DNA from: Schmidtea polychroa
Taxonomy: Eukaryota
Length of the DNA: 64,000 nt
Direction of reading: 5' to 3'
Assembly: GCA_044892525.1 (NCBI GenBank)
Contig: CM097885.1
Coordinates: 8,062,001-8,126,000, forward strand
The position numbers and the translations under genes were made by a program. Below the pieces are notes generated by a model, which saw nothing but the letters and a program-made list of their open reading frames with translations, searched no databases and was not told where the DNA came from. Shown one piece after another: positions 349-60,709 of the stretch (position 1 is the stretch's first letter; each line of letters begins with the position of its first letter).

Positions 349-505
349 ATTTTTTAAATTTTTTATTATATTTTAAAAACTATATTTAACTTGCAACAGG
401 TGCTGCTATCTTGTATATTATTTGTCGATTTTTGATATAAAATTAATATAGTTACTTTGTTTTATTTTTAAAATAAATTTACAAAAAATAATTAACTAAA
501 ATTTA

Positions 506-851
506 TTAATTAACACATTCGCAATCGTCATCTTTACATTTCATAACCTTTTCGATGGGATGATCTATACAATCATTTTTAATATTTTCCAGATCTTTAG
601 CTTCATCTATAGGCTCATCAATTTCTTGGGTGTCATTAGTTTCTTAACTATCATCGGTTTCTTCAACTTCCTGATCATCAATTCCAGAATCTTGACTCTC
701 TGATTTATTTAATATGCTAGAAACATTTAATATGTCATCGATTTTTACACCACTTATTTCTGATAGTTTTTCCAAGAAAAAGATGATTATATATTTAAAT
801 AATAAATATTTCGAAAATTAATTAATCATATTAACCTTTTTCTACAGTCAT
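506..851 (-). pseudogene. Degenerate inverted paralog of the small acidic spliced gene at 7688-8040
   Basis: Translates MTVEK...SQDSG...DDDCECVN*. It has an in-frame TAA at ~645 and the splice acceptor AG is lost. Confidence 0.75.
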
Positions 852-981
852 TATTAACAATTTAAAACTAAAATATAAGTTTGTTTATACATTGTCTTTG
901 TTTAGGTTTGCATGTGTTTTGCATTAATATTGCAATTTCATCGTTAATAAAGTGAACAACAAATATGATTAAATACATTTA

Positions 982-1393: not shown

Positions 1394-2614
1394 TTATACC
1401 AACACGGTTCTATTTGCAGTAATTTGAACTTCATTTTCAAATACTCCATATATTATAACATGTACTGGTTCTGTAATGGCTATTGCAAACTTTATATCTA
1501 GTCGTAAATTCCCGTTTTGTGGTAATTGACTCTGATTTAAATCAAATTCGGGGGCTAAAACAAATGTGAAAAATGGGTATTTGATTTTAAAATCTTCAAG
1601 AGTTATTCCACAATTCAAATTTTTATCTAAATAGCCAAGATTTCTAACAATACTCTGCATATATGTAGCACAGTAATTATCACTTTCGAAATCTTGAGTA
1701 TATGTTTCTCTATAATCAGTATTTTTCGACAAAGTCAATGATGTAACACCAAAGTTTTTAAAAATTGAGCTGGAAGCTGTATAAGACCCATTATATTGTG
1801 TTTCACTTTGAAATGTTACCAGAATAAAATTAGGCATTCTTCTGTCCCCAAATATTTGTTCTTTATAGAATGACGAAGCACCTTTAGCAATAGCGAATTG
1901 AACAATTTCCTTTGTTTTTAATGGATAAATTGCATGTTTTGAATTAAGACCCAATTGATGACCAGCTAATACTGAGGGATCCACTGGAACTCTTCTTACC
2001 AATAATTTTGCATCAACTAATTGGCATATTGGTGCACCTGTACTAGTAAGAGATAATGCAGAATCTGATCTTTTCAGTCTAATGTGTACATTAACTCCTG
2101 GTAGTAAATATTTCGGTTGATCCATAAAGTCGAGTTGTAATGATGAGCACATAGTGAAAAGCTTTGAGCCTTTAACCCACTTTTTTCTTTCATCATCTGT
2201 TGCTGCATAACCCATAGGAGTAAGACATGTATTTTTAGTATCAGAATTGTAATTTAAAATAGTTTCTATTAAAGCTTTGTGAATGAATGTATTATTACCG
2301 CCCTCAATCTTGATATTATTAAATCCCAACACTGCATCTTTAAACAGAGTATGAAACAGGAAATTGTTCGGTATTACATCTGCATTGGCATCCAAAACCT
2401 TTCTATCTTTATCTACAACCTTGATTTGAACAGTCAATAAAGTATCGTTCAAATCTAAATATTCAGTTTGCGAACCATTAATATAAAACTCGATATCATT
2501 TCTACTATCAGTAATTGAATTCATAGGAAAAACTTCCTCAAATGCCCCAAATTCGATTACTGCTTGAGGCGATGGTCTATCAAATATACATAATTAGGAT
2601 TTACCACAAATCAT
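1394..2614 (-). CDS. Major capsid protein (double jelly-roll, Polinton/adintovirus hexon-like); premature TAA at codon 7 (2594-2596)
   Basis: MICGKS*LCIFDRP..., IEFYING..YLDL, QPKYLLPGV, GNLRLDIKF..., ITANRTV. The ATG overlaps the TGA of the upstream gene. Confidence 0.85.
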
Positions 2615-2973
2615 TTTGCAAATATAGTTCCATGTCCTTTCATTCGTTGGTTTATACGTGATATTCCATGTCCTTTACGTTTTGGAGCTGGGGCTGGAGG
2701 CGTATCTTTTTGAAACATACCAGCAACTCCAGGTAGAACCTTCCCTAACTCAGCTAAAGCATTTGTTTTTAGGGATGGTAAAATATTCTGTTCATTCATA
2801 ATCACGTCTTTAGCAGTTTTCATACCAAAATTACCAATACATTTAAGAATAGGTAATGCAAATCTCCCTATTGTTTTTAACCAACCTGATCCGTACTGTT
2901 TACCAACGAAATATGGTAATTCACCGCCAGATTGCCTATCACTATACATACTAATAATATCTGAATTAGCCAT
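2611..2973 (-). CDS. Conserved Polinton/adintovirus small virion protein (QxGG...QxGxG followed by an amphipathic helix)
   Basis: RQSGGELPYFVGKQYGSGWLKTIGRFALPIL; located between penton and major capsid genes. Confidence 0.7.
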   Translation of the reverse strand: MANSDIISMYSDRQSGGELPYFVGKQYGSGWLKTIGRFALPILKCIGNFGMKTAKDVIMNEQNILPSLKTNALAELGKVLPGVAGMFQKDTPPAPAPKRKGHGISRINQRMKGHGTIFAK

Positions 2974-3977
2974 CTACTTTACGAAAATGTAATGTCAAAT
3001 GAGTTTTCGAATCTTTCGGAAAGTTTATAAGTTTTCCACTATCATCACGAATATTTATTTCTATATTGTTTATACATGAGCTTGAAATTGGTAAATACAT
3101 GGGATTATCTATATTTATATTGACAACTTCGTCGTGTTCATATTTTCCAATCCACACTGATTTCAAAAGAGGAACACTGGAATCACCGACAATGATGGGC
3201 TCAATAATATTAGTATATATGAACATTTGTTGATGATGTTCCAGTATTCTTGGTTTACGTATACCAGCCGATTTCTCCCGATATTGTTGCTTCTCTAATC
3301 CAAGTGTATTTGTCAAATTTTTATCAAATGTAACTTCGCGAATGTCATCATTCAAACTGAAGGTAAATAGCAAATCTTTCACAATGTCCAAACTTTTAAA
3401 TATGTGTGAACAATTGGACTTTAAATATTTAAGTAGCACATCAAGTTTATCAATATATAATTCGTCAGCAAAGGTGAATGATTCTTCAACTTCATTATTA
3501 TATGACACGGATATTTTGATTTCTTCTTTCATTACACTGTTTGCTTCAAATAGACCAAAGCGTAATAAATATTCTGTTTCCATAACTTCATTTTTCAACT
3601 TATTGCAACCCATTCGTTTGGCATCTTCAATAGTTTCGAATATTATTGTAAATGGTTTAAAATCACAACTAATATTTAATCCCTCCTTGTAAAACATATA
3701 GCAATGCTGATCTAATATTTGATTTGGAATATGATATGTTTTATCATAATTACTGATACAAAGATACCACTACATGTTTTCATAGCATTCCTTTTGAAAT
3801 CAATCTTACATTGACTATAAAATGGAAATGTGTTGTACACGAATGTAAAATCGTGCAGTGCAACTTCCCAGTCACCATTTAAAGAAATCGGATTCTGGAG
3901 ATTGACCATGAATTTACTGGCTTGATTATATGGATGAATTAATGGGCAGCTATTGCTAGGTAAAATAGTATAAAAAT

Positions 3978-3981
<4 letters not shown>
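2966..3981 (-). CDS. Minor capsid protein (penton), split by a frameshift near 3760
   Basis: N-terminal FYTILPSNS..N..SKF...L..PISLNGDWEVAL; C-terminal FIYTNIIEP.IVGD..VPLL..IEINIRD..G..I.F..LTLHFRK. Confidence 0.85.
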
Positions 3982-5229
<1,248 letters not shown>

Positions 5230-5891: not shown

Positions 5892-6329
5892 ATGTTAGCA
5901 AATATAAATTACCGAAGAACTTTTGATGTATCGAATATGAGGTTCCCATTAGGAAAACCCCAGCAAATTATCAATAGAAGCGGGAAATATCCGATAATAT
6001 TTTTCAAGAATGGTAAATGTAGAATCATGGGATGTAAGAAACCTTTGGATATTAATAAATTACAATATCGAATAAATAATTTCAAAATCCAATCAATTAC
6101 CGTTACTATGGATATGGGACATAGTATCAATCTATATAACATGTCGAAAAAATGTGATTGTATGTTTGAACCGGAATTGTTTCCGGCACTAAGACTATTA
6201 AAATATAACCCTATATGTGTCAACGTGTTTGCTAGTGGAAAGGTTGTCATGCTGGGGTTGAGAAATTTAGAGTATAGAGAATTTGTTGACAATGTTCGAA
6301 ATGAGATAATTTCATTGGTCGATTTCTAA
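5892..6329 (+). CDS. TATA-box-binding protein (TBP)-like protein
   Basis: Two TBP-like repeats: IIFFKNGKCRIMGCK and FEPELFPAL...VNVFASGKVVMLG; TATATAAA upstream at ~5858. Confidence 0.75.
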   Translation: MLANINYRRTFDVSNMRFPLGKPQQIINRSGKYPIIFFKNGKCRIMGCKKPLDINKLQYRINNFKIQSITVTMDMGHSINLYNMSKKCDCMFEPELFPALRLLKYNPICVNVFASGKVVMLGLRNLEYREFVDNVRNEIISLVDF

Positions 6330-6819: not shown

Positions 6820-7143
6820 TAAATGTATTTTTTGTTTCTATCGTGTTTTTTATATTTGAAATAGTAATAAATAGTAATAATATAAATAGTAATAATAATA
6901 GAAATGGAAATAATATAAATAGTAATAATATGACCCATAAATAATAATAAAATATAAATAATAATAAAACATAAATAATAATAAAACATAATAATATGTC
7001 ACATTAATAATATGAACATAAATGTAGCATTAATGCAAATGACATACAAATTTAAACAATGACATGCTATAATCTAATTAGTTGATAGGTATGAGTCAAA
7101 GGTATAAAAACCCTGTAACATTTCAATTTAATCATTATTCACT

Positions 7144-7554
7144 ATGACCAAGAAAATTTCATGCACCGAAAAACCTAAAGAAATGGTACAACCAGTTCAA
7201 ATGTTCCACAATTATAAAATGTATTTTTTGAAAGAAGAAATCAATATGAAATTGGTTGCACCAGTCAAGCTAATTCCAACTAAATTTCAATTCTTATCCG
7301 GCACGCTTTCAATGATTGATGTCAAAACTATTGATGATGTTTTTAAACGGTTAGATTCGAATCTATCGTGTAATCAACATGCATGGTTCAACAATAGATA
7401 TGCAAGATTTTATGATGCTTTTGATGAAATCAGTTTCAAAGAAAATGAAAATTGGTATATAACAATTGCAATCCAGGGATATAAAGTTGATAATAATGAT
7501 GTATATTCTCCTATTTGGAAAATTATGTCTGCTAGACTTTTACAAATATTTTAA
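7144..7554 (+). CDS. Hypothetical element protein
   Basis: 136-aa ORF with TATAAAA ~40 nt upstream and AATAAA downstream. Confidence 0.6.
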   Translation: MTKKISCTEKPKEMVQPVQMFHNYKMYFLKEEINMKLVAPVKLIPTKFQFLSGTLSMIDVKTIDDVFKRLDSNLSCNQHAWFNNRYARFYDAFDEISFKENENWYITIAIQGYKVDNNDVYSPIWKIMSARLLQIF

Positions 7555-7687
7555 TGTTATATTTAATAAATGTATTAGTCATATTTGTTTTTCTCTTTAT
7601 TAATTGCAACATAAATGCAAATGACATGCAAATTTAACAAAGAAAAATCTATAAACAAACTTATAATATAGTTTTAAAGTGATGAAA

Positions 7688-8040
7688 ATGACTGCAGAAA
7701 AAGGTTAACATGATTAATTAATTACCGAATTATTTATTATTTAGAATTTGTAATCAACTTTTTGTTGGAAAAGTTAGCAGAAATAGCTGGTGTAAAAATT
7801 GAGGACATATTATCTATTACAAATGCCTTAAATATCGGTTGGATAGTTGAGAGTCAAGATTCAGGATTTGATGATGAGGAAGAAACTCAAGAAATTGATG
7901 ACGAAATCTATGAACCTATAGATGAACCTATAGAGGAACCTAAAGATGAACCTAAAGATAATATTACGAATGATTGTATTGATCATGTCGTTGAAAATAT
8001 AATGAAATGTGGAGATGACGACTGCGAATGTGTTAATTAA
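7688..8040 (+). CDS. Small acidic protein, two exons (41-nt intron 7704-7744)
   Basis: MTAEK|EFVINFLLEK joined in frame; diverged paralog at 506-851. Confidence 0.7.
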
Positions 8041-8110
8041 TAAATTTTAGTTAATTATTGTTTGTAAATTTATTTAAAATTTTATTTAAAAATCAAACAA
8101 AATAACTATA

Positions 8111-8637
8111 TTAATTTTTATTTAAAAATCGGGATAAAACATACAAAATAGCAACACCTGTTGCAAGTTTTATATAGTTTTTAAATTTCATTTTGTGTTC
8201 ATCGATTTTCTTCGCATTTCTGGCGAGTTGATTCAGTACGCCCCATCCGCCATTGGCTTCAATCCATGGTTGAAACTTTGACTTGATTATCTAGAAAATT
8301 AATATTAATAAAATATAGATTATAAAAGTATTACTTCTTGAGACCACTGATTATAATGTTCAGAGTCCCATAAACTTTTTTCTATTATAATCTTCATATA
8401 AGCGAACCCTACTAGTATTCGGGTCCACTTCATCTCATCGTCACATAGGCAGTTAAAAATCCTATGAAAATAGAATTTTTTCGTTTCGAGGCAATCGGAA
8501 TTGAGCATATCCTCATAATCGATATGATTTCCTTCGATAATATTTTCGGTCCGGTCGACCAGGAAACTGAGGCTTTCCACAATCTTCTTGTTGATAACTT
8601 CGCTTAAAAGATTTTCCATAAAATTTGGTTGAGACAT
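8111..8637 (-). CDS. Bcl-2 family protein (~160 aa), two exons (44-nt intron 8291-8334)
   Basis: BH1-like LCDDEMKWTRILVGFAY; BH2 QPWIEANGGW; C-terminal anchor KLATGVAILYVLSRFLNKN*. Confidence 0.85.
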
Positions 8638-8742
8638 TTCTACAATAATTTAAAATATGATGTTTTATTTATACTAATACCGTAAGATTTTGATTGGTTG
8701 ATAGACTATAAATGTAAAAGAAAAGTTTTGATTTGATACACC

Positions 8743-9213
8743 ATGAAAACTATATTCATATTGCTAATTATTATAACGAGTGTGTGCTCACACAATACAA
8801 CAATAACAGTGGAGTCTTTTAATAAGTCAATATGTGTTTTATATATTCTCAACAAACCAAAATGGTCAAAGCATCCAGGAAAAAGAATATCTCAAAGATT
8901 GGAGAATTTAGAAAACAGTTATGAACTATCATTTGCATATATACAAAATATAAAAATTAAATTGATTGATCATATTGAAGTTTTCAATAACTCTAATGTT
9001 GAAAATAAAAAGAATATGAAAATTATTGATAAGAAGTATGATTATTTGTTAAAAAAGACCGAATTATTATTAAGAGAAATTCAAACAATCAAAGGATCAA
9101 TAGAATATCTGAAAATCAATTCAACGTTACCAATTTCAAACAATATTGCTGCGAATACTAGTACATCAATATTTAGTTTACCTTTGTTAATCTTGCATTA
9201 TTTTATTGTTTAA
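8743..9213 (+). CDS. Secreted/surface protein: signal peptide, coiled coil, hydrophobic C-terminus
   Basis: MKTIFILLIIITSVCS; heptad-like centre; STSIFSLPLLILHYFIV*; TATAAAT upstream. Confidence 0.6.
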   Translation: MKTIFILLIIITSVCSHNTTITVESFNKSICVLYILNKPKWSKHPGKRISQRLENLENSYELSFAYIQNIKIKLIDHIEVFNNSNVENKKNMKIIDKKYDYLLKKTELLLREIQTIKGSIEYLKINSTLPISNNIAANTSTSIFSLPLLILHYFIV

Positions 9214-9429
9214 ATAAATGTATGTTTTGTTGATTTGTTTAATAATACCCTTGCGAGTTGTTGAGCGTGAGCAGTACCCTTGTGACATTGTTTTGGTCCA
9301 CTTTGAATTCTAAGTCAAAACAATATTTATTCTCCAATATGGAGATTATAACGTGCAAGACTTGCTCTTGGTTTTTAATAGATTTTTTAATCAATAAATT
9401 TTTAATCAGTTATTTGTTATTGATTTAGA

Positions 9430-9532
<103 letters not shown>

Positions 9533-9569
9533 TTTAAATAAATTGAAAGATAATAGGTTAGAAAAAAAA

Positions 9570-10640
9570 ATATGATTAAGAAAGACAGCGGCAATACAGT
9601 TGCAAGTTTAATAAAGAAAGATGCAATTCAGATGCAATATTAAAGTCATTCAGTAATTTTAAAAAATAATATTAAGGATGTTTAATAATAGTATTAATTT
9701 AAATAGTAAAAATATCAATAATAATAATATTAATTATAATAGTAATATTTTGAAATAATAATAATGATTCATAAAAATTAATGCTAGGAGTTACATGTCT
9801 TTGTTCTAACTTAGAAAAATTTTGAAAAAGTATGAGTCATAAAAAATTTTTGCTATGGGGGGGGGGGTTACATGCCTTTGTTTTGACTTAGAAAAATTTT
9901 CAAAAAGTATGAGTCATAAAAAATTTTTACTATGGGGGGGATACATGTCTTTGTTCTAACTTAGAAAAATTATGAAAAAGTATAAGTCATAAAAATTTTT
10001 TTGCAGGGGGGGTGGGGATACATGTCTTTGTTTTGACTTAGAAAAATTTTGAAAAAGTATGAGTCATAAAAAATTTTTACTATGGGGGGGATACATGTCT
10101 TTGTTCTAACTTAGAAAAATTATGAAAAAGTATAAGTCATAAAAATTTTTTTGCAGGGGGGGTGGGGGATACATGTCTTTGTTTTGACTTAGAAAAATTT
10201 TGAAAAAGTATGAGTCATAAAAATTATTGGCTATGGGGGGGGGGGGGTTACATGTCTTTGTTTTGACTTAGAAAAATTTTGAAAAAGTATGAGTCATAAA
10301 AATTTTTTGCTAGGGGGGGTGGGGGGATACATGTCTTTGTTCTAACTTAGAAATATTTTGAAAAAGTATGAGTCATAAAAATTTTTTTTTTGCTAGGGGG
10401 GGGTACATGTCTTTGTTTTGACTTAGAAAAATTTTGAAAAATATATATGACTCATGCTTTTCATCCGACATGATGGGTTTGAACCGTCGTAGAACAAAGA
10501 CCATGAGTCATACACACATATATGATACACCCACATGACCCCTGACTCACCCTCTACACGATGAGTCATCAATCGATGAGTCATCACTGAAAAGTGATGA
10601 GTCATAGGTCTTTGTGCCAGCGGGCTCACATCCACCTACT
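9570..10640. repeat. Right TIR of element A, with ~9 tandem 73-79-bp units (TGAGTCA + G-run)
   Basis: Units start at ~9793, 9870, 9943, 10020, 10093, 10171, 10250, 10329 and 10406; ends CCTACT at 10640. Confidence 0.9.
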
Positions 10641-11260
10641 TTAATGAATTTAAAACATTTCGACGAAAATATGATACGAGAAAAAGCAACTATTTTATAT
10701 AAAGAATACCCAGATGATCTTGAAAATGGTCCAATCGACGAATGTTTACATTTTAAACATGTAAATTTAATATCGGATAACTTAACAGCATTATCTAAAT
10801 CTGAGCAAATTTTAAGAACAATAATTGAATCGCAAATTGAATGCACTTTTCCGAATATAACAACAGCTCTACGAATATATTTAAGTATCGCCTGTACAAA
10901 TTGTAGCGAGAATGGTCGTTTTCAACTCTCAAGAGAATAAAAAATCATCTAAGATCATCTTTAGGACAATACAAATTAATTAATTTAAGTATTTTGTCAA
11001 TAGAATCGAATGTCTTTGAGAAACTGTATCACAAGAAAATTATAGATATATTTGCTAAAAATAAATGCCGCAAAAGACATATTTAAATTAAAATTTAATA
11101 TTTAATTCACATATTTATATAAATTTTTTGAATTTTGTTTTGCGTAAATACATTTAAGTTTTGAATTTTTGAAAATAAAATTGAATTTTTATAATAAAAG
11201 TATGTAGGGGTGCAAAATTTTTTTTAGCCCAGGGCGCTCAAACTTATTAATACGGCCATG
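10641..11260 (+). mobile_element. hAT (ZMYM1-like) transposase C-terminal dimerization-domain relic and right end; insertion target of element A
   Basis: TFPNITTALRIYLSIACTNCSE/RSFSTLKRIKNHLRSSLGQ..L..LSILSIE; end ...TACGGCCATG. Confidence 0.8.
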
Positions 11261-12589: not shown

Positions 12590-14060
12590 AGTTTCTATTT
12601 TATGCTTCAACAGCTTTGTGTAGCCAATGTCCCATTTATCAGCCATAAAAACATTTTGATTCTTTTTTATAATATCTAGTTATATCGGGTTATTTATCTT
12701 TAAAGTATTCTTTGCTTTTTGAAATCGTTCCATCTCCGTTATTGTCTTCCCAAATTTGGCTTTGATACTGCATATGTGGTCTTGCTTCGTTTTCTTGACT
12801 TCTTCTACTGGCAACTATAGTTGTATACCAAATTGTTTTTGCAGCTCTATACCACCAATTACCTCTGGGGTCATATATCTTACTATCGTAAACTTTACCC
12901 TTCTTTTCCTGCCATTTATTCCTATTTCTAATATTGCTTTACCTTTCGTTTCTAAAACACTATTATATGCACATCTCAATGTATCAGTCGTTGTTGTTAG
13001 TTCTACATCTTTAAGTTTTTCAAATTTGCTCCAAATCATGACATTTACTGTAGCTCCTGTATCTACCAAGCATCCCATCTTCTTGTCTTGTATTCTAATA
13101 ATTACACTTGGTCGGCCTTGTATTTTATGATAACAAATAATATCATTTTTCAATTCATCTATTGTGAGTATTTGTATTTTTTCTCTTTCTGCAAAATCCT
13201 TTTTATGAATCTGTTTACTTTTCTTATTACATTATTTTCTTCTTCCGTTACCTGCGTATCTATCACATCTTTTCTATCTCCTCTTCTATCGGGGCGTTGA
13301 TATTTGGGTATTCTCTGTATTTATCTTCTATTCTTTCATCACTTGGTTCGTCTATGAATGCTACGTATCTCTTGTCTGCTTGTCTTGTATCCTTTCTAGT
13401 TCCTTGATAACTTTGCCCTGCTTCGTATCGCTCTTGTTTTCTTCCAAAATTCTCATTGATTCTCCGATATCTCATTCTCTCCAAATTTGTGTAACAATCT
13501 GCCTCTTTATGATCTCCCAAAATACACCTCGTACACCTTATTTTTTGACAATCTCTTCTCACGTGTCCCGGGGTACCACACGCATAACATTCGACTACCT
13601 TTCTCTGCATCTGTGAACACTGACTTCTTTCATGTCCTTATCTTCCACATGTAGATCATGTAACTGCCTTCCTTGTTATGCAATATCTACTCAAATGTCC
13701 TACCTTGTGACATGTCAAACATTCGTTCTTAATTCTGTTCGGTCTTTCTTCTTCATACTCTCTCGGTTCGTTATTATATCTTGGTGATACAATATTTTAT
13801 TGCTTGATTTGTTACCGCGTCTCAAGACAAGAAGTAACGCGTCTATAACTTCTTGTTATATTCTGTTTTGGACTTTTTTCTCTCACTGCATAGATCTCTT
13901 CTGCAACTATACGAGATTCGTAACTTCTTGATTTCTTTCTTCACTTCTGTTGTTCCTTTGATGTCACTTTGACACAATTCTCGCTTTAAAGTCTTCTCGG
14001 TTGCACAGTGTAACAGCAGATATTCTGTTAAACTTTCTTTGTTTAACTCATGCCTCAATA
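12590..14060 (-). pseudogene. Degenerate Ty3/Gypsy gag (CCHC knuckles) and aspartic protease
   Basis: CLTCHKVGHLSRYC, CYACGTPGHVRRDC, CTRCILGDHKEADC; CLVDTGA; stops and frameshifts. Confidence 0.85.
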
Positions 14061-19464: not shown

Positions 19465-20199
19465 ATGTCAGTTCGAAATTTGCAAACGTTTGATCCTTTT
19501 ACTGAAAGTGAAGATAGACGGTCTTATCGGAATCTATATAAATCTTATATGTCGAGTATGTCAGAAAAAGCTTCTATTTTAAAAAGTTTGATCCATCAAA
19601 TACAAAAACGGTTTTATCGAAATCTATATAAATCTTATATGTCGAGTATATCAGAAAGAGCTCCTATTTTAGAAAGTTTTATCCATCAAATAGAAAACAT
19701 ATATGGTCTTGCCAGTAATCTTCAGGTAGAAGGTGCGACAGATGAATTAAAATCATCACCAGTGCGTCGAATGTTATGTTTAATTATTATAATCGACTTA
19801 GTGATATGTGTTCTTCTTTGGATAATATATTTGCAGCAACATCCACCTCTTATTGACAATTTGAAAAAGGAAGTTCTCAATTATACTTTTAACAATTCAT
19901 TATTCGATATGACCGTTTTATCCGGTTGTAGGTTTTTGTATTTAGAAATCGCTTATGGTTGTGTTAAATCACAATTTCCTTGGTATATTTCTGTATCTAC
20001 ATTAATTACCAGTGTGTTGTCCATTATTAAACTGGTTCTTAATATGGTTAATGATCGTGTTGTATATAAATATTTAATGATAATTCTTTCATTTATCGCC
20101 GCATGGATTGAAACAATATTTTTAATTTACCGTGTTTTGCCAAAAGAAAAAGTAGCTGAAAGGACCATGGAACACTATAGATTTATTTCTCAGCAATAA
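19465..20199 (+). CDS. Intronless MENTAL-domain (STARD3NL/MLN64 N-terminal-like) membrane protein
   Basis: SPVRRMLCLIIIIDL...LLWII, SLFD, YLMIILSFIAAWIETIFL..RVLP.E; four hydrophobic segments. Confidence 0.75.
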   Translation: MSVRNLQTFDPFTESEDRRSYRNLYKSYMSSMSEKASILKSLIHQIQKRFYRNLYKSYMSSISERAPILESFIHQIENIYGLASNLQVEGATDELKSSPVRRMLCLIIIIDLVICVLLWIIYLQQHPPLIDNLKKEVLNYTFNNSLFDMTVLSGCRFLYLEIAYGCVKSQFPWYISVSTLITSVLSIIKLVLNMVNDRVVYKYLMIILSFIAAWIETIFLIYRVLPKEKVAERTMEHYRFISQQ

Positions 20200-23118: not shown

Positions 23119-25093
23119 ATGAATGATGATATTAATCGGATTATGAAATGTCTAACATTGTCAGTACATGAAAATGAAGTAATTACTTTTTCAAATTTAA
23201 TTAATGACATTTTAGTTATTAAAAGTTTTTAAAAAATGATTTTAAATCCACATATTTATTAAGATTACGAATCTCCAAAGTTTATCATGGGCTATAAACA
23301 AATTAGAAAATTTTCCAATGACTTTTGATGTATTGGATCAATCCAGAATTGGCCAAACATTGCAATCAGTTCGTCATTCAAAAAAGATCTCAGCCGATAT
23401 CAGTGAACGAATCAGATATCTAATCAAGTGTTGGCGTCGATTGCTCGATGTCAATTGCCAATCAATCATTCCAAATGAAATCCGAAAAGGTTTCTCTTCA
23501 GTTAAACCACCTGAAATGAATGGAATTAAAAATGGTTATATCAAAGAAAAAATTTCATCAGACATAAAAAATCTTAATGGAATTAATCACACGAATTCTC
23601 TCGAAATAATAAATCATTCTGAAAATGAAAGAGTTCCCATATCAGATCAAAATACTAATAAAACTGATGAAATTAATTCTACAGAAATTATTGAGAAAGA
23701 AGCATCGGAAAATGAATTGCCTAATTGTAATGAAAATCAACAAATTAAAGAAAGTGTTTTAATAGAAAATAGCATTTGCAATGAATCGTTGGAGTTGGAA
23801 ATTACTGCAAAAATCACATCAGAACAAAACCCAATTATTGAACCGGTTCCGGAAAATGTTACACTCGATGGTTCATTTAACAGTCAAACGAACCAAGAAA
23901 ATATTTGCCAGGAAATCGAGCAACCGAATTTGAGTGGGGTCGTTGATGAAAATGTCGCTTTAAATAGCGAATCAAAATCGACCAATCGAAATCAACTCGG
24001 TAAGCCGAAACTGAAATCCACGAAAGAATTGCTAGCCGATTTTTCAAATCTCATCGATACCGACACGAAAAACAAAATCCTTTTGGACAAAATCACTCAA
24101 GAAGATGACGATCCTGTTTCTTATCATCCAGAAGAGTACAAATTACGGGAAATTATCCAACAGAAACATCTTTTCGTTGAATCCCCGACAAAAATCACAC
24201 TAGACGAGAAACAGGAAGAGGAACGAGAAATCAATGAAGAGATCGACAGAGTCATTGAACGAGTAATCGAAACAAAAAAAGAAACGAAATGCGACAAACT
24301 GCTGAAGAGATTCCAATCAATTTGTGGAATCCAGCCGACCCTCATCATAAAACCAATGGTTCCCTGGAAAAACCTCAAACGAGGAATCGATTGCTCATCG
24401 CCTTACATCAAACTGTCGAAAGTCAGAAAAATCGACGAATCCGAAAACCAACCGAAATACTCAATTGCCGATATCAACGATCTTTTGCAGACATTCGAAA
24501 TGCGTGCCCAGCGAAAAGACTTGATAACTGCGGCAATCCAAGAACGAAAAGAAATCAAAATCGTCGACAACACTCAATCGATAACCGATTTGTCATTAAA
24601 ACTCAAATTGAAAATACCGCCCCAGCAGCAAAAGAAAATTAAAATACTCAAAATCAAAAAACGAAAAAAGAAAAAGAAGAAAAAGAAACAACCTAAACCA
24701 AAAATCGTTATTAAAAAACCCCGTAAACCAGTAGTGAAACCGAAACCTCCGATAACAAATTTCCTGGACGACTTTCCTAAATTGCCGGAATTGATGGAAA
24801 GTGTTGAGGAACTAATTGATGAAGATTTTTCAATTAATCGACAAGAATTTCTCGATTCCGATGACCACATCAATCGGTTCACATACGAAACCGTTGAAGG
24901 TTATAACTGCACCAAACATACTCAATCATCAGAATTGTTAAAATTGACCCAAATGTATTCCTTGTTAATTGATGATAATTATCTTCACGTTTTCCCTTGG
25001 GTCGATTTGGAATATCCAGCCAAATCGACGTTTTCATCCGAAGCCGATCAAATCATCCAAACTGCTCTAGATTTATCGCAATTGTATTCTTGA
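23119..25093 (+). CDS. MED26: Mediator subunit 26-like; exon 1 23119-23178, exon 2 23264-25093
   Basis: TFIIS-N/LW domain LENFPMTFDVLDQSRIG...LIKCWRRL; C-terminal LHVFPWV; in-frame GT-AG splice. Confidence 0.75.
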
Positions 25094-47300: not shown

Positions 47301-48789
47301 CTGATATCTCTATTATGATAAATATAAACATTTATCGCCCGCGAAATCTGCTAGAAATATTGTCTAGTCCTAAAGCAATTGACATTAAGATAAACCATCT
47401 CGATCACAGCAAATGCTAATTATCACAAAAGTTGTCACCGTCTTCCTTATCACAATCTGCAAATTTGACAATTAGAGAATCACCGATAGAAATAAGTCCA
47501 ACCAGTTAAATCAATATAAATTCCTCTGACAAGAGATAAAGATGAACAATTTATCTTACACGCAATATTACTGATTTTAATAAATGTCACACAGCGACAA
47601 AATATTAGGCGACTAAATCATAGTCTAATGGATGGAATAAACATTGTACAATGAACATAATTATGTACGGAAAGGGGAAATTATATTAATTTCGTTAATG
47701 TTTATCGAGGTGAATAAATTTAATTTATTAATTAAGGTATAATTACTTGGGCAAATGACCCTCCCCGTATATACTATAGATGATTCAAATAAACTTGATC
47801 GTAGGGATCCCAGTCATTATAGAATGTAAATAATTTGTAAGAATAAATAATAAAATTTTTCGATCAAATTTCCACCCGACTATTTTTCAGTGTTTAATGA
47901 TGAAATTTATTCTAAATGAAATTTATTATATTTTCCTTTAGTAGTATAAAGTAAAAGAGAAGGGGTTATTGTTATGAGTTTGGTTCGCTTCACTAATACC
48001 TCTTTCTAGTAGTATTCTGATTATGTAAATTTCTTTCAGTTATGAGCGAGCCAAATTTACATACAAAAGGACTCCAACCGTGCTTTTCTTGCGCGGACAA
48101 AAACGAAGACATTCGTAAGCTTCATGAATATATCGAGGCTCTCAAAAAACGTATAGAAACTTACGAAGGCACGTGGTTCTCCCCGACACAAATGAAGGAG
48201 GAGAAAACAAAAATCTTGAGACTGAAGCACTGTTGAGACAGTCTTCTAGAAAAGAGCCGATGTCAGCGGCTAACCATTAAAGCCCAATCGGAGGCGCTTC
48301 AAAAAGTATAACCCGACTCAGAAATCCTAAAGAGAGTGCGAGAGTACCCCATCCAAGACGGAACAAACGTGTTCCCCATTCATCATCATAATGACGAAGT
48401 GCCGCAACCATCAACGAGTTGCTTGGGGCACGGATTCCAGTTCTCGCCAGTAGGGAGTTAGTGGCCCGCGGCAGCAATAGGGGGGGGGGTAAAAAATGTT
48501 GCAAACTTTTGATTGCATAACTTTTTCCGTAGACATTTTTTGATTACATAATTGTTGCCGTAATGCCCAATGTTTTCTGGGATTTTAAATACAAATTTTT
48601 TTTTTTTTTTTTTTTCAATAAACAAGCCAAGGATAAATATTATTTGGGTGGGTCTCCTTGGTCCTGAGAATTTCAATAGAAAAAGGTAGTCTTCAATAAA
48701 AAAGCATGGATTTTTCACACTATAGTGAGGGGATCTTCTTGGTCATGAGAATTTCAATAGAAAAGGTGGTTTACATTAAAAAACGCATA

Positions 48790-49440
48790 GTAAATTTTTA
48801 AAATAAAGTAAATTATGGGTCTAAAATTTAAAAATAAAGTAAATGATGGGTCTAAAAATTTAAGTAAATCAAGGTTCAGATTTATTTTTGAAATAAAGTA
48901 AATTATGGTCTAAATAAGTAAATTATGGGCTAAGATTTTTCAATTAAAGTAAATAATGGTTCTAAAAAAATTAAATTACAGTAAATTATGGTCCAAATTT
49001 TTAAATTAAAGTAAATTATGGTTCTTAAAAATTAAATTAAAGTAAATTATGGTTCTTAAAAATTAAATTAAAGTAAATTATGGTCAAAATTTTTGAATTA
49101 CAGTCCAAAAATTTAAATTAAAGTAAATTATGATCCAAATTTTTAAATTAAAGTAAATAATGGTTCTAAAAAATTAAATTAAAGTAAATAATGGTCCAAA
49201 TATTTTAAATTACAGTAAATAATGGTTCTAAAAATTAAATTACAGTAAATAATGGTCAAAAATTTTAAAATTAAAGTAAATTATGGTTCTAAAAATTAAA
49301 TTAAAGTTAATTAAGGTCCAAATTTTAAAATTAAATAATCAATGGTAAAAAAAAATTTAAATTAAAGTTAAATAAGTAAATTAAAGTAATAATTTTTAAA
49401 TAAGTAAATTAAAGTAATGTAATAAGTAAATTAAAGTAAG
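48790..49440. repeat. Subterminal ~30-bp tandem repeats, left arm (mirrored at ~60895-61550)
   Basis: AAATTAAAGTAAATTATGGTYC units. Confidence 0.85.
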
Positions 49441-49625
49441 ATTTTTAAATTTATTAACAAAAATAGAAGGTGTTTGAGAATTGAAATTTTTTAATGGAAA
49501 TTTTAATGAATTATTTTTTAAGTAATTTTTAATAGAAATTTTTATGAATAATTTTCAATGGTAATTTTTAATGGAAATTTTAATAGAATAATTTTTAAGA
49601 TAATTTTTAATGAAAATTTTTATGA

Positions 49626-49684
<59 letters not shown>

Positions 49685-49871
49685 TAATATTAATAATATA
49701 TCAACCAAATACTATACAACACATAAAAAATTAACTAAACACATAAAAATAACTAGACACATAACAAAACATATAAACATTAACTAAACACATAAAAATG
49801 AACTAGACACATAACAAACATAAAAATTTACCAAATAACAAATGTAAAGATATAAAATTTATTCAATAAAA

Positions 49872-52800
49872 TTAGTCCTCATCGGACAAAATAACGTCAT
49901 CGATATCGATGTCATCTTCTCCAAAATCTTCATTTAATTCTTCCTCATCTTCTCCATCATTTTCTCCACCATTTTCTGAAACATTTTCTGCAACAATTTC
50001 TCCAACATTTTCTCCAATATTTAATTCACTTAATCTTACATGCCCATATGCAAGACTAGTATTTTGCCCCACCCAAACCCTTTTGTCATCTTTGTTAGTT
50101 AGTGCTATTTTTGTGTTTTTAATTGTAAAAATTTGATGATTTTTGCTTGTTATTTTAGTCTGAGGAACCGAAAAAATCTGGTTAGTGTTATAACAATCCA
50201 GGTATGACTGATGTTTTATGTCACCACCTTTCAATGTTACACCTTTAGCCTTTTTTGTTTCCTCATCACCCAACAAGCTATAACATTTAGGTCTAAGAAA
50301 AACCCACTCCTTATATTTAAGACCTTTATTCTCGTCTTTGAACTTTCCAATGACTGAATCAAGGTTCTTACTATATAAGGAATGACAACTATTGTAATTG
50401 GAAGTATCCAATAAATTATCTCGAACCATTGCAGGTAAAAGAACCTCAAGTTTGCAGTTAATGACTTCGAGGAAAAAAGAATCTGTATCACCTGCAACGA
50501 TATTAATTTTACAATTAAACTCATTGCGAAATGATTCCAGATCCTTATATTGCAATTCATACATTCTAAGTTTAGATAGATCAAGTACAGATTGACCAAT
50601 GTAACTCGGTCTATCTAAACATATAGAATCGGAATTCAATAGTGCTGCAATTAAATTATCTGCTATTTTAATAGATTTTTTAAAAGTCGGTTTTGACGAA
50701 TATTTAACTAATTTACCGGCAGTTGTACAAAGACGAAGATTCATTCTTCTCTTTAAATTTTCAACTGTTTTGCCGTATAAACTATTATTTAGCAATTTAT
50801 AATAATTTTTATCTAAGCTATTTACGCTTTTTGATCTTAATTCGGTATTTGTATCTATATATTTTTTAAAAATTGGTGATTGCTTAAATCTTACACCCCT
50901 ATTTACACGTGTTACTTTAACACCAAGTTCCAAATATAATTTTAATAATCTCCAATGAATAACATAATTAGATTTTGGAAGATGAGTTAATAATAATTTT
51001 TCAACCTTAGACCCAGCAGGTTTCATTTTTTCAGCAGCTACAGGGAAATCATCCAACTTATCATGAAGCTCAGAAGGAATTACAAGATCAACTTCAAGTG
51101 TGTATCCATAAGACAAAGATTCAAGATTTAAATTCCTACATTCATCCATTATTTTATCAAATCCATCAAGAACCCAACAAAATTCGCCACAAGGTAATGA
51201 TTGACTTAAAGCCCAGCCATAAAGATTATTAATATCTATATATAGTAACTCAGTGTTCTCGTCGGTTTTTACGTAATGCTTATTCACAAAAGTAAGACCG
51301 CCTCTTATTCCACCCTCATAAAAGCTAAACATTTCGTTTTCAGTTATGAGTTCAATTGGTTCATTTAAAGACATTAATGCAGAAGACCAAGACATGCCTG
51401 GAATTCCGAAATAATTCAATGGTTCCAATCTATTGTGAGCAATGGATTTCAACCGAAACTGATGAAAGAAATCAGCCAAAAGAAAACAATCAAGTTTTAG
51501 GTAGATCATCATATAATCTAATAAAGTTACGCAATTAGTTTCTACCCAAATCTCCTGAGCTTTTTCATACTCAAGCTCAGTGACACCCTCCCAGATTGGT
51601 GGTAATTCATAAGTAGTTTGGAGAATATCTAAAGAAGTGGCGAAATTATAAGGGAAGATTCCTTTTTCACTTACTATGGTGCCAGAAAAAGCAGAATTAG
51701 TAAAAGGCAAAGAATTCAAAGTTTTGACTGCTTTAGCCAAAGAATCATTGACAAATTGATACGAATCAATGAATCTTAGGCTAATTTTACCTAAATGAGC
51801 AATCAAAGATATAAATTTTTCCGTAGTTATTGGGATGCACCCTAAATTCCAATTTTTAAATTTATTTAATCCATATTTAAGTATATGGTGCATATCGTAT
51901 CCCTTCAAGTTGTGAAATACGATAGGCAAAATTTTATTTATTTTCCTATTTACGTTACATGTGCTACAAGCTGCACCCAAGTATTTCCCCGTAAAATGAT
52001 CGTGATCTCTAACAGGATCGACGATAGATTTCATACAAAGATAACAAACAGATGCACTAACAAATTGACGTTGTTCAATTTTTGTTAATTTCATCATAGG
52101 TTTCCTACCCATTTTATAATAAAAAGGAAGAACCTTATTTAATGCTATATCCTCTATAGCACTTAAAAAACTCTCGACGCAATCTAAACCTATGAACTGC
52201 TGATAAGATTTAGATCCGTCAAAGTTATTTACAAGTAAAAGACCAGCAGATATTGGCATGTGTCGTTGGAAATGATCATTATCAGAAGGTAAAATAGCCT
52301 CAAAATCTGCATAAACTACAAAAGGAGGAGTTACTGTTTTCGACCAGTCAGTAAACTGTAATAATTTATTTTGAGGGAAGGTGTAAAGAGTTGTTCCTAA
52401 TTGATTACGTTTACATAATATTTCATGTTTTTCTAGTGCGTGTTTATTATTAAACCCATTCAAACACCGATGGCACCATAATGAACGTATGCGTGTAGGA
52501 CAACTAGTGTTGATATGACAATTCATTAACTTATTTAAATTACTTATAGCAACGTAATGGAAATTGTTTCCTTTATTTAATAATAGTAAATTAATTACAG
52601 TTCCATTTAAAACTTTGGAACGATGTATAATATCTAAATGTGGGTGTTTTAATACGTAATTATCTATTAATTGTTTGTTATTGTCATAAGAAAAAACGTT
52701 AATTATTAAGCCTGGATTTTTGGCCTCGAATTTTCTAATATCTTTTAATTTCATGGGTAAGTCCAATGGATTATATATTAATTCAGATAAATTATAACTG

Positions 52801-53651
52801 GATGTCCTATTTTTAGCATAACTACTAACCTCATCATATTTTAAAATAGCTAAAATGCTATATAAAAAACATGAATCATCGGTGTTTTTTATATTAATTA
52901 AACAATATTTATTTTTTAGATAAGTAGGTGTTTCAATGAAACTCCTACCACTTAATCTACTTAGCCTACTTATTTTTGTTATGGTGAAATGTATTTCAGT
53001 GATATTTTTTATATTCCAACTGCTTCCTAACTCAGTAATATTAGTAATTTTCTCATTTAATTCCTTAATGCCTTCATCAAAAAATGATGCAGTTAAAGGC
53101 TTTGCATAATTTGAGATATTATTAACCTTTATTTCCCCGTCTTTTTCAAATTCGATTGTTATTCCGAATTGAATTTTGACGGAGCCTAATTCGTTAATAA
53201 TATCTCGTAATTTTTTTATTAGTTGTTCAGGAAATATTATTTCTTTTATATTTAAGTCGCTTGTATTTAAGCTTAATATTTGATGGGTACCTCTTAGATC
53301 TTTTTGTATTATTGGAACATTTCCACCTATTTGTATTATATTTAATCCATCCCAAGAGTCAAGGGAAATATTATCTAATCCGACCTGGGATTCAACAACC
53401 AATCCATCATGGGATTCGACAACCAATCCATCATTGGATTCCACAAAAGGCAATCCGTCCTGGGATTCAAAAGAAGAAGTATCTAATTTAATTTTTTTAT
53501 TTTTATTATTTTTTTCTATAGTTGAGGGTCTTTTAAAAACACTATCTTTTTTAAAATTAAACCTATCTAAATGATTTTTATGTTTATTATAAAAAACGCT
53601 ATATGTTACGGGGTCACTAGTCTTACATACGGGACATATTTTAAAACACAT
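49872..53651 (-). CDS. polB: Protein-primed family B DNA polymerase (Polinton type), 1259 aa
   Basis: Exo I YADFE; CxxC..RDHDH..TG..CxxCN endonuclease-VII-like insert; Exo II FHNLKGYD; motif A YIDINNLYG; motif B KLLNNSLYGK; motif C GDTDS. Confidence 0.95.
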   Translation of the reverse strand: MCFKICPVCKTSDPVTYSVFYNKHKNHLDRFNFKKDSVFKRPSTIEKNNKNKKIKLDTSSFESQDGLPFVESNDGLVVESHDGLVVESQVGLDNISLDSWDGLNIIQIGGNVPIIQKDLRGTHQILSLNTSDLNIKEIIFPEQLIKKLRDIINELGSVKIQFGITIEFEKDGEIKVNNISNYAKPLTASFFDEGIKELNEKITNITELGSSWNIKNITEIHFTITKISRLSRLSGRSFIETPTYLKNKYCLINIKNTDDSCFLYSILAILKYDEVSSYAKNRTSSYNLSELIYNPLDLPMKLKDIRKFEAKNPGLIINVFSYDNNKQLIDNYVLKHPHLDIIHRSKVLNGTVINLLLLNKGNNFHYVAISNLNKLMNCHINTSCPTRIRSLWCHRCLNGFNNKHALEKHEILCKRNQLGTTLYTFPQNKLLQFTDWSKTVTPPFVVYADFEAILPSDNDHFQRHMPISAGLLLVNNFDGSKSYQQFIGLDCVESFLSAIEDIALNKVLPFYYKMGRKPMMKLTKIEQRQFVSASVCYLCMKSIVDPVRDHDHFTGKYLGAACSTCNVNRKINKILPIVFHNLKGYDMHHILKYGLNKFKNWNLGCIPITTEKFISLIAHLGKISLRFIDSYQFVNDSLAKAVKTLNSLPFTNSAFSGTIVSEKGIFPYNFATSLDILQTTYELPPIWEGVTELEYEKAQEIWVETNCVTLLDYMMIYLKLDCFLLADFFHQFRLKSIAHNRLEPLNYFGIPGMSWSSALMSLNEPIELITENEMFSFYEGGIRGGLTFVNKHYVKTDENTELLYIDINNLYGWALSQSLPCGEFCWVLDGFDKIMDECRNLNLESLSYGYTLEVDLVIPSELHDKLDDFPVAAEKMKPAGSKVEKLLLTHLPKSNYVIHWRLLKLYLELGVKVTRVNRGVRFKQSPIFKKYIDTNTELRSKSVNSLDKNYYKLLNNSLYGKTVENLKRRMNLRLCTTAGKLVKYSSKPTFKKSIKIADNLIAALLNSDSICLDRPSYIGQSVLDLSKLRMYELQYKDLESFRNEFNCKINIVAGDTDSFFLEVINCKLEVLLPAMVRDNLLDTSNYNSCHSLYSKNLDSVIGKFKDENKGLKYKEWVFLRPKCYSLLGDEETKKAKGVTLKGGDIKHQSYLDCYNTNQIFSVPQTKITSKNHQIFTIKNTKIALTNKDDKRVWVGQNTSLAYGHVRLSELNIGENVGEIVAENVSENGGENDGEDEEELNEDFGEDDIDIDDVILSDED

Positions 53652-54616
53652 TTTGACGCTAAAGTTGACTTATTTAACATTTTCATAATAATTTAATAAA
53701 AATAATGTGATGAACCCACAAAGTAATATCATTTTTCATCAAATTGCAAAACAGTAATAACGTTTTCATAAAATTGTAACAAAGTAATAACATATTTCAG
53801 ATAAATTTTCAACAGTTGTAAAATATTTAAGCAAATTGTAACAAGATTAGAAAATATTACAACAAAGTAGTAACATATTTCAGAAAATTTCAACAAATTT
53901 GTAAAATATTTATCAAATTGTAACTAAAATAATAAAAATATTGCAACAAAGTAATAAAATAATAATGGTAATTAAGACAAATCAATACATTATTTCGAAG
54001 ACGGACAACAAATTAAAAAGAATATTGTAACTAAAATAATAAAAATATTGCAACAAAGTAATAAAATAATACAACATTTTAAACTCTAGATCAATCCATT
54101 TTATAGAAAATTAAATTTTATCTATATAATATATGAATAAATATCCAAGGAAATTACGTTAACGTATAATAAATACAAATTTATCGTAAAAACATGTGTG
54201 TATTACACACAAAACAAGATACATAATTTCTAATCAATCCATTTTATAGAAAATTAAATTTTATCTATATATTATATGAATAAAATCCTAAGAAAATTAC
54301 GTTAACTGTATGAAAAATACAAATTTAACATAAAAACATGTGTGTATTACACACAACATACGAGACATATTTTTTAATCAAGCTATTTTATAGAAAATTA
54401 AATTTTATCTATATAATATATGAATAAAAATCCAAGAAAATTACGTTAACCGCGCGAAAAACTACAAATTTATTGTAAAAACATGTATGCATTACACACA
54501 AAGCATCAAACTGAAATTGTAATTGCGCCATGTTGTAGAGAATTAAATTCTGCCTATACATTGTTACACTTAAATCTCGATCAGACATGTGAAAAGAGAC
54601 ATAAAAGAGAAAGAAC

Positions 54617-55703
54617 AGTAGAGTAGTATGATTGGGGCCATCCAGACCAGGTCACCGCCAGGCCACATATACCCTCTCCCCCCCGTGTGTAAAATAATGT
54701 TAATAATAATATTTATACATCAGTAGATAGATCTTGCACTAAGCTTCAAAATAAGCTATCCAATAATAAATTCGGATAATGGGAACGATAACTTTGGGGC
54801 AAACGAAAACCAGGTCACCGCTGGACCACTAATAATTATATGACCTTGAAAATGATTTTTGGTTAAATGTTAATAACTTTGTTAATATTAATGATGATGA
54901 TACCTTCCATGGATCAATCGAAAGGTCTTAGACCGAGCTTTAAAATGAGGTATCGTTTAATAATATTTGTTGGCGGGAACTCTGTATATTTAAATTTTAA
55001 AATATGACCTTGAAAAATTAAATGATCACTTAATTAAAACAAAAAATTAAATTAAAAAATGACCTTGAAAAAAAATGACCTTGGGAATGACCTTGATGAG
55101 TCACGCGACCTTGAAAAAATAAATGACCTTGGAAATAATAATATTTTGAAAAATAAATGACCTTGAAAAATGGTCTCGGTAAAACTTTAATAACTTTGCC
55201 GATGTTAATGATGATGATACTTTCTATGGCTCAATTGAAAGGTCTTAGACTACGCTTCAAAATAAGCTATCTATTAATAAATTCGGATAATGGGAACATT
55301 AATTTTTGGGATGAGAAAAAGTATGTCCCCGCCCGGCCAATTAATAATATTTTGAATAATAATAATAATTTAACGTTGAAAAGATGGTGGTCATCAATTG
55401 TTAATAACTTTGTCAATATTAATGATGATGATACCTTCTATGGATCAATCGAAAGGTCTTGGACTGAGCTTTAAGATGAGGTATCGTCCAATAAAATCCG
55501 TTGGTGGGAACATTAATTTTTGGGATGAAAAATAGTAGGGGCCATCCCGGCCAATTAATTAAAACAAAAAATTAAATTAAAAAAAAAATAAATGACCTTG
55601 ACCTTTTATTTAAAAAAAAAATTTTTTTTCCCGGGGGGGGGGAGGGGGTATATGTGGTCTGGAGGGGACATGGTCTGGATGGCCCACATCATACTACTCT
55701 ACT
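54617..55703. promoter_or_regulatory. Central unit between the divergent polB genes: AGTAGAGTAG...CTACTCTACT borders, ~70-bp diverged inverted repeats, three direct repeats and clustered TGACCTTG
   Basis: Seen directly; function inferred. Confidence 0.5.
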
Positions 55704-56668
55704 GTTCTTTCTCTTTTATGTCTCTTTTCACATGTCTGATCGAGATTTAAGTGTAACAATGTATAGGCAGAATTTAATTCTCTACAACATGGCGCAATTA
55801 CAATTTCAGTTTGATGCTTTGTGTGTAATGCACACATGTTTTTACAATAAATTTGTAGTTTTTCGCGCGGTTAACGTAATTTTCTTGGATTTTTATTCAT
55901 ATATTATATAGATAAAATTTAATTTTCTATAAAATAGCTTGATTAAAAAATATGTCTCGTATGTTGTGTGTAATACACACATGTTTTTATGTTAAATTTG
56001 TATTTTTCATACAGTTAACGTAATTTTCTTAGGATTTTATTCATATAATATATAGATAAAATTTAATTTTCTATAAAATGGATTGATTAGAAATTATGTA
56101 TCTTGTTTTGTGTGTAATACACACATGTTTTTACGATAAATTTGTATTTATTATACGTTAACGTAATTTCCTTGGATATTTATTCATATATTATATAGAT
56201 AAAATTTAATTTTCTATAAAATGGATTGATCTAGAGTTTAAAATGTTGTATTATTTTATTACTTTGTTGCAATATTTTTATTATTTTAGTTACAATATTC
56301 TTTTTAATTTGTTGTCCGTCTTCGAAATAATGTATTGATTTGTCTTAATTACCATTATTATTTTATTACTTTGTTGCAATATTTTTATTATTTTAGTTAC
56401 AATTTGATAAATATTTTACAAATTTGTTGAAATTTTCTGAAATATGTTACTACTTTGTTGTAATATTTTCTAATCTTGTTACAATTTGCTTAAATATTTT
56501 ACAACTGTTGAAAATTTATCTGAAATATGTTATTACTTTGTTACAATTTTATGAAAACGTTATTACTGTTTTGCAATTTGATGAAAAATGATATTACTTT
56601 GTGGGTTCATCACATTATTTTTATTAAATTATTATGAAAATGTTAAATAAGTCAACTTTAGCGTCAAA

Positions 56669-60472: not shown

Positions 60473-60659
60473 TTTTATTGAATAAATTTTATATCTTTAC
60501 ATTTGTTATTTGGTAAATTTTTATGTTTGTTATGTGTCTAGTTCATTTTTATGTGTTTAGTTAATGTTTATATGTTTTGTTATGTGTCTAGTTATTTTTA
60601 TGTGTTTAGTTAATTTTTTATGTGTTGTATAGTATTTGGTTGATATATTATTAATATTA

Positions 60660-60709
<50 letters not shown>

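Follow-up and report, generated by a model that had tools for sequence, protein, structure and literature searches.

A putative spliced Bcl-2-like gene in a defective Maverick/Polinton element

Introduction

Homologues of Bcl2 and IAP have been reported in adintoviruses by Starrett et al. 2021, where three Bcl2 labels are found in Fig. S2 (PMC8502044). We describe a similar gene in element A, which is found in a stretch of 64,000 nt analyzed as a whole (the window). As in adintoviruses, a Bcl-2-like accessory gene is found beside genes for an rve-chromodomain integrase, capsid-like and penton-like proteins and an adenain protease, together with terminal inverted repeats. This likeness is drawn from gene content, and the copy in element A has no polymerase or ATPase. 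Another difference is that the main text of the adintovirus paper does not mention splicing, whereas the Bcl-2-like gene and the integrase of element A both have predicted introns.

A second related case is vNr-13, from the herpesvirus of turkeys. It is also a two-exon viral Bcl-2 gene with a C-terminal anchor, which keeps the NWGR motif and the exon structure of the host gene, and shares 64% identity with chicken Nr-13 (PMC7199394). In contrast, the gene in element A contains WTR, its intron is not at the conserved site, and its similarity to Bcl-2 proteins of solved structure is only weak. The gene for vNr-13 is located in inverted repeats (PMC7199394), while element A has a decayed partial duplicate in the opposite arm.

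Planarian Burro LTR retrotransposons carry BCL2 and BIR domains, and have been suggested as possible proviruses, which is unproven (PMC6431247). They are also giant mobile elements with a Bcl-2-like cargo. As far as descriptions can be compared, BCL2 is a domain of the retrotransposon polyprotein in Burro, whereas in element A, which is a DNA element, it would be a separate gene with splicing. Finally, the cellular multi-motif Bcl-2 family (A1/Bfl-1, Bcl-xL, Bax, Bak and schistosome Bcl-2) has the same order of BH1, BH2 and tail, and gives the best matches in Pfam, PDB and the ESM Atlas. The gene in element A differs from this family in several respects: both halves are below the Pfam cut-off, neither BH1 nor the BH3 position keeps its glycine, and GGW is not followed by an intron.

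Bcl-2 as a cargo of Polinton-class elements and viral Bcl-2 genes with two exons are already known. The points of interest here are the non-ancestral intron and the WTR groove. Intact vertebrate Mavericks are described as intronless (PMC8097293), and dinoflagellate Mavericks hold introners (PMC11957031). In a literature search with little coverage of subscription journals, we have found no paper which describes splicing in a Bcl-2 gene of Polintons, and none on the BH1 glycine mutant.

Structure of the Gene

The coordinates of the features we have analyzed are given in Table 1. The Bcl-2-like gene is located on the minus strand, and its ATG is at 8637. Exon 1 has 303 nt and a GC content of 0.36, which is 0.33 in exon 2 and only 0.11 in the intron. 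This intron starts with GTAATA and ends with TTTTCTAG. The predicted spliced product has 160 amino acids; without splicing, the frame reaches a stop after 105. An earlier note on this DNA had given the two exons, the 44-nt GT-AG intron, the KWTR and WIEANGGW motifs and a product of 160 amino acids, all of them exact.

Table 1. Location in the window of the predicted gene, its motifs and other features of element A.
Feature	Position	Strand	Remarks
Exon 1, 101 codons	8335..8637	-	Predicted helices, degenerate BH3-position segment, BH1 (KWTR); PF00452 profile positions 10-66
GT-AG intron, 44 nt, phase 0 (predicted)	8291..8334	-	Upstream of BH2, away from the conserved post-GGW position of the family
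Exon 2, 59 codons and stop	8111..8290	-	BH2 and C-terminal tail anchor (predicted); PF00452 profile positions 86-100
TATA-like box	8667..8673	-	30 nt upstream of ATG; weak
BH3-position segment, residues 23-28	8554..8571	-	From alignment to a Bax chain and the homologue alignment
BH1 core KWTR, residues 70-73	8419..8430	-	Thr replaces the Gly of NWGR
BH2 motif WIEANGGW, exon-2 residues 9-16	8243..8266	-	No intron after GGW
Short hydrophobic tail, exon-2 residues 42-56	8123..8167	-	Candidate membrane anchor; basic flanking residues
Right terminal inverted repeat	9563..10640	.	Array of ~77-nt subrepeats; ends with CCTACT at 10640
rve integrase with chromodomain	3984..5226	-	Split by a 238-nt GT-AG intron (4841-4604) filled with (TTA)n
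Major capsid protein-like gene	1394..2614	-	Synteny with L008 and L019; no profile match
Penton-like gene	2966..4032	-	Named from its position; split in two frames from about 3748 to 3679, by a frameshift or an intron
Adenain-type protease segment	985..1293	-	PF00770, E 1e-6
TBP-like gene	5892..6329	+	Common to L008, L009, L019, L026 and L032
Decayed inverted copy of about 7602-8185	366..937	+	Left arm; last ~23 codons of exon 2 (366-434) and an acidic ORF

An open frame is obtained with 16 pairs of GT/GC-AG sites. The donor at 8334 is used in four of them, three of which keep BH2: Besides the acceptor at 8291, two alternative acceptors are in frame, at 8282 and 8276. The acceptor at 8291 has the best pyrimidine tract of the three. 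It is also the closest fit to the family profile, since it leaves 14 residues between the two PF00452 matches, compared to 19 profile positions. Donors upstream of 8334 were ruled out, as they would cut out residues conserved in the homologues described below. The TATA-like pattern found upstream of the gene is not enriched in the window, where 81 are found and 102 expected. A Med26-like gene of the host, also in the window, has an apparent intron of 85 nt (23179-23263) with the same GAA/GTAAT donor context, as read from the sequence. This host is a eukaryote with AT-rich DNA, which also has a MENTAL gene, and is most likely an animal. Of 14 sequencing runs listed in a search, nine from four studies contain part of 7100-9250 and none of them is on record as RNA, which speaks neither for nor against splicing.

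Seven homologous ORFs were found for exon 1 (P0001-P0006 and P0127), 64-85% identical, in contigs of 500-1603 nt. Five of the seven belong to a single 90% cluster, and the comparison covers exon-1 proteins only. Look-ups of the clusters yielded no names. In all seven, conservation runs to Glu101, the last codon of exon 1, and the ORF ends 3-13 residues later. The residue after the donor codon is Val in six cases, as expected from a GT donor, and Gly in P0127. Conservative substitutions were compared with the 36% expected from single-base changes. Six comparisons gave 10/15, 17/33, 9/15, 10/15, 9/15 and 11/16 (p 0.007-0.048) and the seventh, with P0127, gave 16/36 (p 0.18); the seven comparisons depend on one another, and no mutation bias is included in the expectation. 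By this measure, exon 1 is maintained in relatives of 64-85% identity.

We have not found the spliced full-length protein in protein collections. This is to be expected, since the matches are located on short DNA contigs and their ORF calls run into the intron. No relatives of exon 1 appear among IMG/VR viral contigs or in JGI metagenomes, and the representative protein library gave only P0127. Exon 2 had no match among 52 candidates when it was compared with longer proteins. Its sole match in IMG/VR, L053, was discarded as a chance match of 11 residues within an unrelated ORF. When both exons were compared by tblastn with 52 loci defined by their capsid genes, none of the 52 gave a match (best E 0.22), but L008 and L019 are the only loci which clearly extend to this part of the element, and distant Bcl-2 genes would escape tblastn.

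The gene might have been functional once and be now a silent passenger of element A, or the 44 nt might be a disabling insertion, leaving a truncated product of 105 amino acids or none. Element A is decayed elsewhere, a decayed partial duplicate of the gene is found in its left arm and the protein collections gave no spliced protein, all of which would agree with such a loss. Nevertheless, we consider it quite improbable. The frame is open in both exons and keeps its phase from one canonical splice site to the other, and homologues with identities down to 64% lose conservation at the identical codon, unlike what a copy-specific insertion would produce. The structure with two exons and a GT-AG intron is very probably real, and we infer that the gene is spliced.

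Probable Membership in the Bcl-2 Family

Both exons were searched separately. Among the 24,736 families in Pfam, PF00452 ranks first for exon 1 (15.9 bits, E 0.02) and also for exon 2 (12.3 bits, E 0.27), in both cases below the gathering cut-off for this family, 31.4 bits. The latter E value is equivalent to about 1e-5 if PF00452 alone is considered. As a rough sum, the two scores add up to 28.2 bits. All five exon-1 sequences in alignment A3 match PF00452, with a best E of 8e-4; no conventional threshold is reached.

Searches against PDB sequences give similar results. Exon 1 gave three rows, two of which are Bax and A1. Exon 2 gave 45, and in 43 of them its BH2 is aligned with Bcl-xL. The profile derived from A3 gave 19 rows: 13 are named chains of the Bcl-2 family (A1, Bcl-2 and Bak, best E 0.044) and five are unrelated. 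The remaining one is a schistosome protein, which we take to be a Bcl-2 homologue. In the ESM Atlas, the top three clusters for exon 1 (scores 0.90-0.92) have PF00452 in 46, 29 and 12% of their members, a weak result in which recognition is low; exon 2 had no match there.

Structure prediction was less informative. AlphaFold2 gives an all-helical model for exon 1 alone, with low confidence (pLDDT 63.7, pTM 0.42). A Foldseek search with this model against PDB and BFVD found nothing at E <= 0.001; the Bax core domain was the top match in PDB, with E 2.4. With VIA-align, only generic helical bundles were found (Z <= 6.9). The score was 0.01 when the products of both exons were co-folded as separate chains.

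No single result is significant. Nevertheless, two adjacent pieces name the same family independently and in the right order, which makes chance unlikely. Judging from these matches, the two exons cover successive stretches of a Bcl-2 domain, and a hydrophobic tail follows. The spliced Bcl-2-family gene that the earlier note placed inside element A is supported to this extent, and by homologues which end shortly after the donor, but each exon remains below the Pfam cut-off.

The motifs appear in the order expected for the family: BH1, BH2 and a C-terminal hydrophobic anchor. This anchor is short for a transmembrane helix, with a Kyte-Doolittle mean of 1.79 over 15 amino acids and only 1.19 over 19. 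A BH2-like pattern is found once in the window and never in 60 shuffled sequences, although this pattern was picked after being seen. In the BH3-position segment Leu is kept, Gly is replaced by Val, and the Asp which follows varies among homologues (D/E/N).

Two canonical features of pro-survival genes are absent. One of them is the glycine of NWGR in BH1, which lines the BH3-binding groove. The W, T and R of the BH1 core are invariant in the eight sequences compared (the gene and its seven homologues), so that Thr replaces this glycine in all of them. The other one is an exon boundary directly after GGW, as the predicted intron is located 16 codons upstream of that site.

The Element Which Contains the Gene

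According to its genes, element A is a Maverick/Polinton copy, similar to adintoviruses. It is a non-autonomous derivative, since polymerase and ATPase are absent from this copy, as searched by tblastn with the L008 and L019 proteins. An integrase with rve and chromodomain is present, as is usual in Mavericks/Polintons. The Bcl-2-like gene is located between the core block, which includes TBP-like, integrase, penton-like, capsid-like and adenain protease genes, and the right inverted repeat. The left partner of this repeat runs from 355 off the start of the window, and the left end of the element lies outside.

The gene order of element A is shared by two relatives from metagenomes, L008 and L019, which in addition have a long ORF similar to polymerases and an A32-like ATPase. 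Both have other cargo at the end which corresponds to the Bcl-2-like gene, an E2 enzyme in L019. This ubiquitin-conjugating gene occupies positions 222-719 of L019, within the same accessory zone (PF00179, E 2e-12). Penton-like genes are duplicated in L013, L015 and L019. No loci were obtained from IMG/VR when it was searched for capsids.

Pfam gave no match for the capsid-like and penton-like genes. Both are named from synteny with L008 and L019 and from Polinton motifs, and both are interrupted in this copy. The capsid-like gene has one in-frame stop near its 5' end, when compared with P0007, which is 97% identical and has no stops.

The integrase gene provides a second example of an intron in this element. 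The intronless integrases of L008 and L019 align to 5226-4840 and 4604-3984 without gaps or stops. The intron between these segments is almost pure (TTA)n, interrupts the TDLG-KEF motif and is flanked by repeated TAGGTA. It looks as if it had been gained by insertion at a proto-splice site.

The inverted copy in the left arm is 83-87% identical to the original and occupies the place of the polymerase in the relatives, which suggests an old inverted duplication followed by a deletion. Next to the Bcl-2-like gene and divergent from it, there is an ORF of 156 amino acids (8743-9213) with hydrophobic N- and C-termini. It has no useful Pfam match and none in the 52 loci; it might be a secreted or membrane-anchored protein.

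Function and Origin

Several observations in other systems are relevant to the function of the gene. In flatworms, cytochrome c release is said to depend on Bak and Bcl-2 homologues (PMC8998228). Trichoplax Bcl-2L4 has lost the BH1 glycine; a functional groove was judged unlikely in this case, which was read as an alternative function (PMC8998228). In mouse Boo, Ser is found at the same position and selectivity is changed (PMC8998228). NWGR is also unconserved in Bcl-2 proteins from adenovirus and murine herpesvirus (PMC7199394), and E1B-19K inhibits both Bax and Bak (PMC11209288). Bcl-2 mimics are common in dsDNA viruses, and viral Bcl-2 proteins also target Beclin 1 and autophagy (PMC11209288).

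We moderately favor the idea that the product is a tail-anchored damper of apoptosis, a degree of confidence which applies to the gene structure and the anti-apoptotic mechanism together. The gene would be transcribed in the nucleus by host Pol II and its 44-nt intron would be removed by the host spliceosome. The product would then be anchored by its tail in the mitochondrial outer membrane or the ER, where it would most likely restrain permeabilisation of the Bak/Bax type in the host. Its selectivity may be altered or narrow, owing to the change from Gly to Thr in BH1. The cell would thus be kept alive while the linear DNA of the element replicates and integrates. The apoptosis blocker proposed in the earlier note remains in this form the likeliest function, but a canonical BH3 groove is hard to reconcile with Thr in BH1: Since the change is found in all eight sequences, the presence of such a groove is uncertain.

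This uncertainty leads to another explanation, that the gene has a real spliced Bcl-2 fold which is not a survival factor binding BH3. It might have some other target, such as innate signalling, autophagy or mitochondrial shape, or be a dominant-negative or death-promoting modulator. The invariant WTR instead of WGR and the missing BH3 glycine point in this direction, as do the precedents of Bcl-2L4 and Boo and the action of viral Bcl-2 proteins on Beclin 1 and autophagy. The best exon-1 matches are also divided among A1, Bax and Bak. Nevertheless, BH2 and the tail have a canonical form, and the adenovirus and murine herpesvirus proteins without a conserved NWGR include established inhibitors. 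We consider this explanation unlikely, with the apoptosis damper still ahead of it.

The earlier note took the gene as a sign of a true infectious phase. This does not follow. Planarian Burro LTR retrotransposons also carry BCL2 (PMC6431247), so the gene does not demonstrate such a phase, and the copy in element A is defective. Also, an element which only replicates and integrates inside cells would profit as well from blocked death. The presence of the gene is in fact less surprising than it first seemed, since Bcl2 homologues had already been reported in adintoviruses.

On the other hand, a viral Bcl-2 mimic marking an infectious, cell-to-cell phase of the element family would be compatible with a damper of apoptosis, and adds a claim which this gene cannot prove. 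The family has capsid-like, penton-like and protease genes, and relatives combine them with an A32-like ATPase and a polymerase in one unit. A stop-free capsid protein exists elsewhere, P0007 being the example, and dsDNA viruses commonly have these mimics. Against these points, Bcl-2 does not discriminate between viruses and retrotransposons, element A has neither polymerase nor ATPase and its capsid gene contains a stop, exon-1 relatives were not found among IMG/VR viral contigs, and Maverick virions had not been observed according to a study of vertebrate elements (PMC8097293). We regard this reading of the gene as somewhat unlikely. The Bcl-2-like gene does not settle the infectivity of Polintons.

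The exon boundary after GGW is conserved from sponge to mouse, and is kept in pro-survival genes and in sponge Bak (PMC8998228). Since the gene in element A has no intron at this site, it probably derives from a host gene taken up long ago as a copy free of introns. Its present intron would have been gained later, within the element, like that of the integrase. This is the simplest history; the alternative is that the gene was inherited from a multi-exon host gene of the Bak/Bax type.

A more speculative proposal, to which we give little likelihood, is that element A belongs to a Polinton lineage which gains introns and has maintained its Bcl-2 gene for a long time. With WTR, its groove would have been rebuilt to fit a target which is new or highly selective, and its activity would be gated by host splicing. 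Such a gate is proposed because the unspliced form of 105 amino acids has neither BH2 nor the anchor. If this were true, and in the case of a planarian host, Bcl-2 would be carried by both Polinton and Burro, giant mobile elements which are unrelated, and would serve to keep stem cells alive. The Bcl-2 genes of these elements, if very numerous, would then be part of the control of cell death in the host.

Whichever target it has, the gene illustrates how annotation based only on ORFs misses Polinton cargo that may modulate the host: Gene callers give a truncated exon 1, which is under every Bcl-2 threshold. It is a testable case of a virus-like endogenous element to which host cells may owe their survival. 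As a natural variant with Thr instead of Gly in BH1, it would also be useful for work on groove selectivity.

Other Features of the Window

A second element is located at 48449-61897. It is a near-perfect palindrome with AGTAG/CTACT ends and a 6-bp target duplication (CTCGCC). It contains two almost identical polymerase-like ORFs of 1259 and 1267 amino acids, 46% identical to the one in L008, and has no match to capsid, integrase or ATPase queries. This element complements what element A lacks; the ends of the two differ beyond the terminal motif.

Remnants of other mobile elements are also present. An ORF remnant is found at 10644-10940, beside the end of element A. By a motif, it resembles the C-terminus of a hAT transposase, for which Pfam gave no confirmation. 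Fragments similar to a Gag zinc knuckle and a protease of an LTR retroelement are found at 12800-13610. Finally, a gene with a MENTAL domain occupies a single ORF at 19465-20199; the START domain is absent from this ORF, which has an internal tandem duplication of 90 nt.
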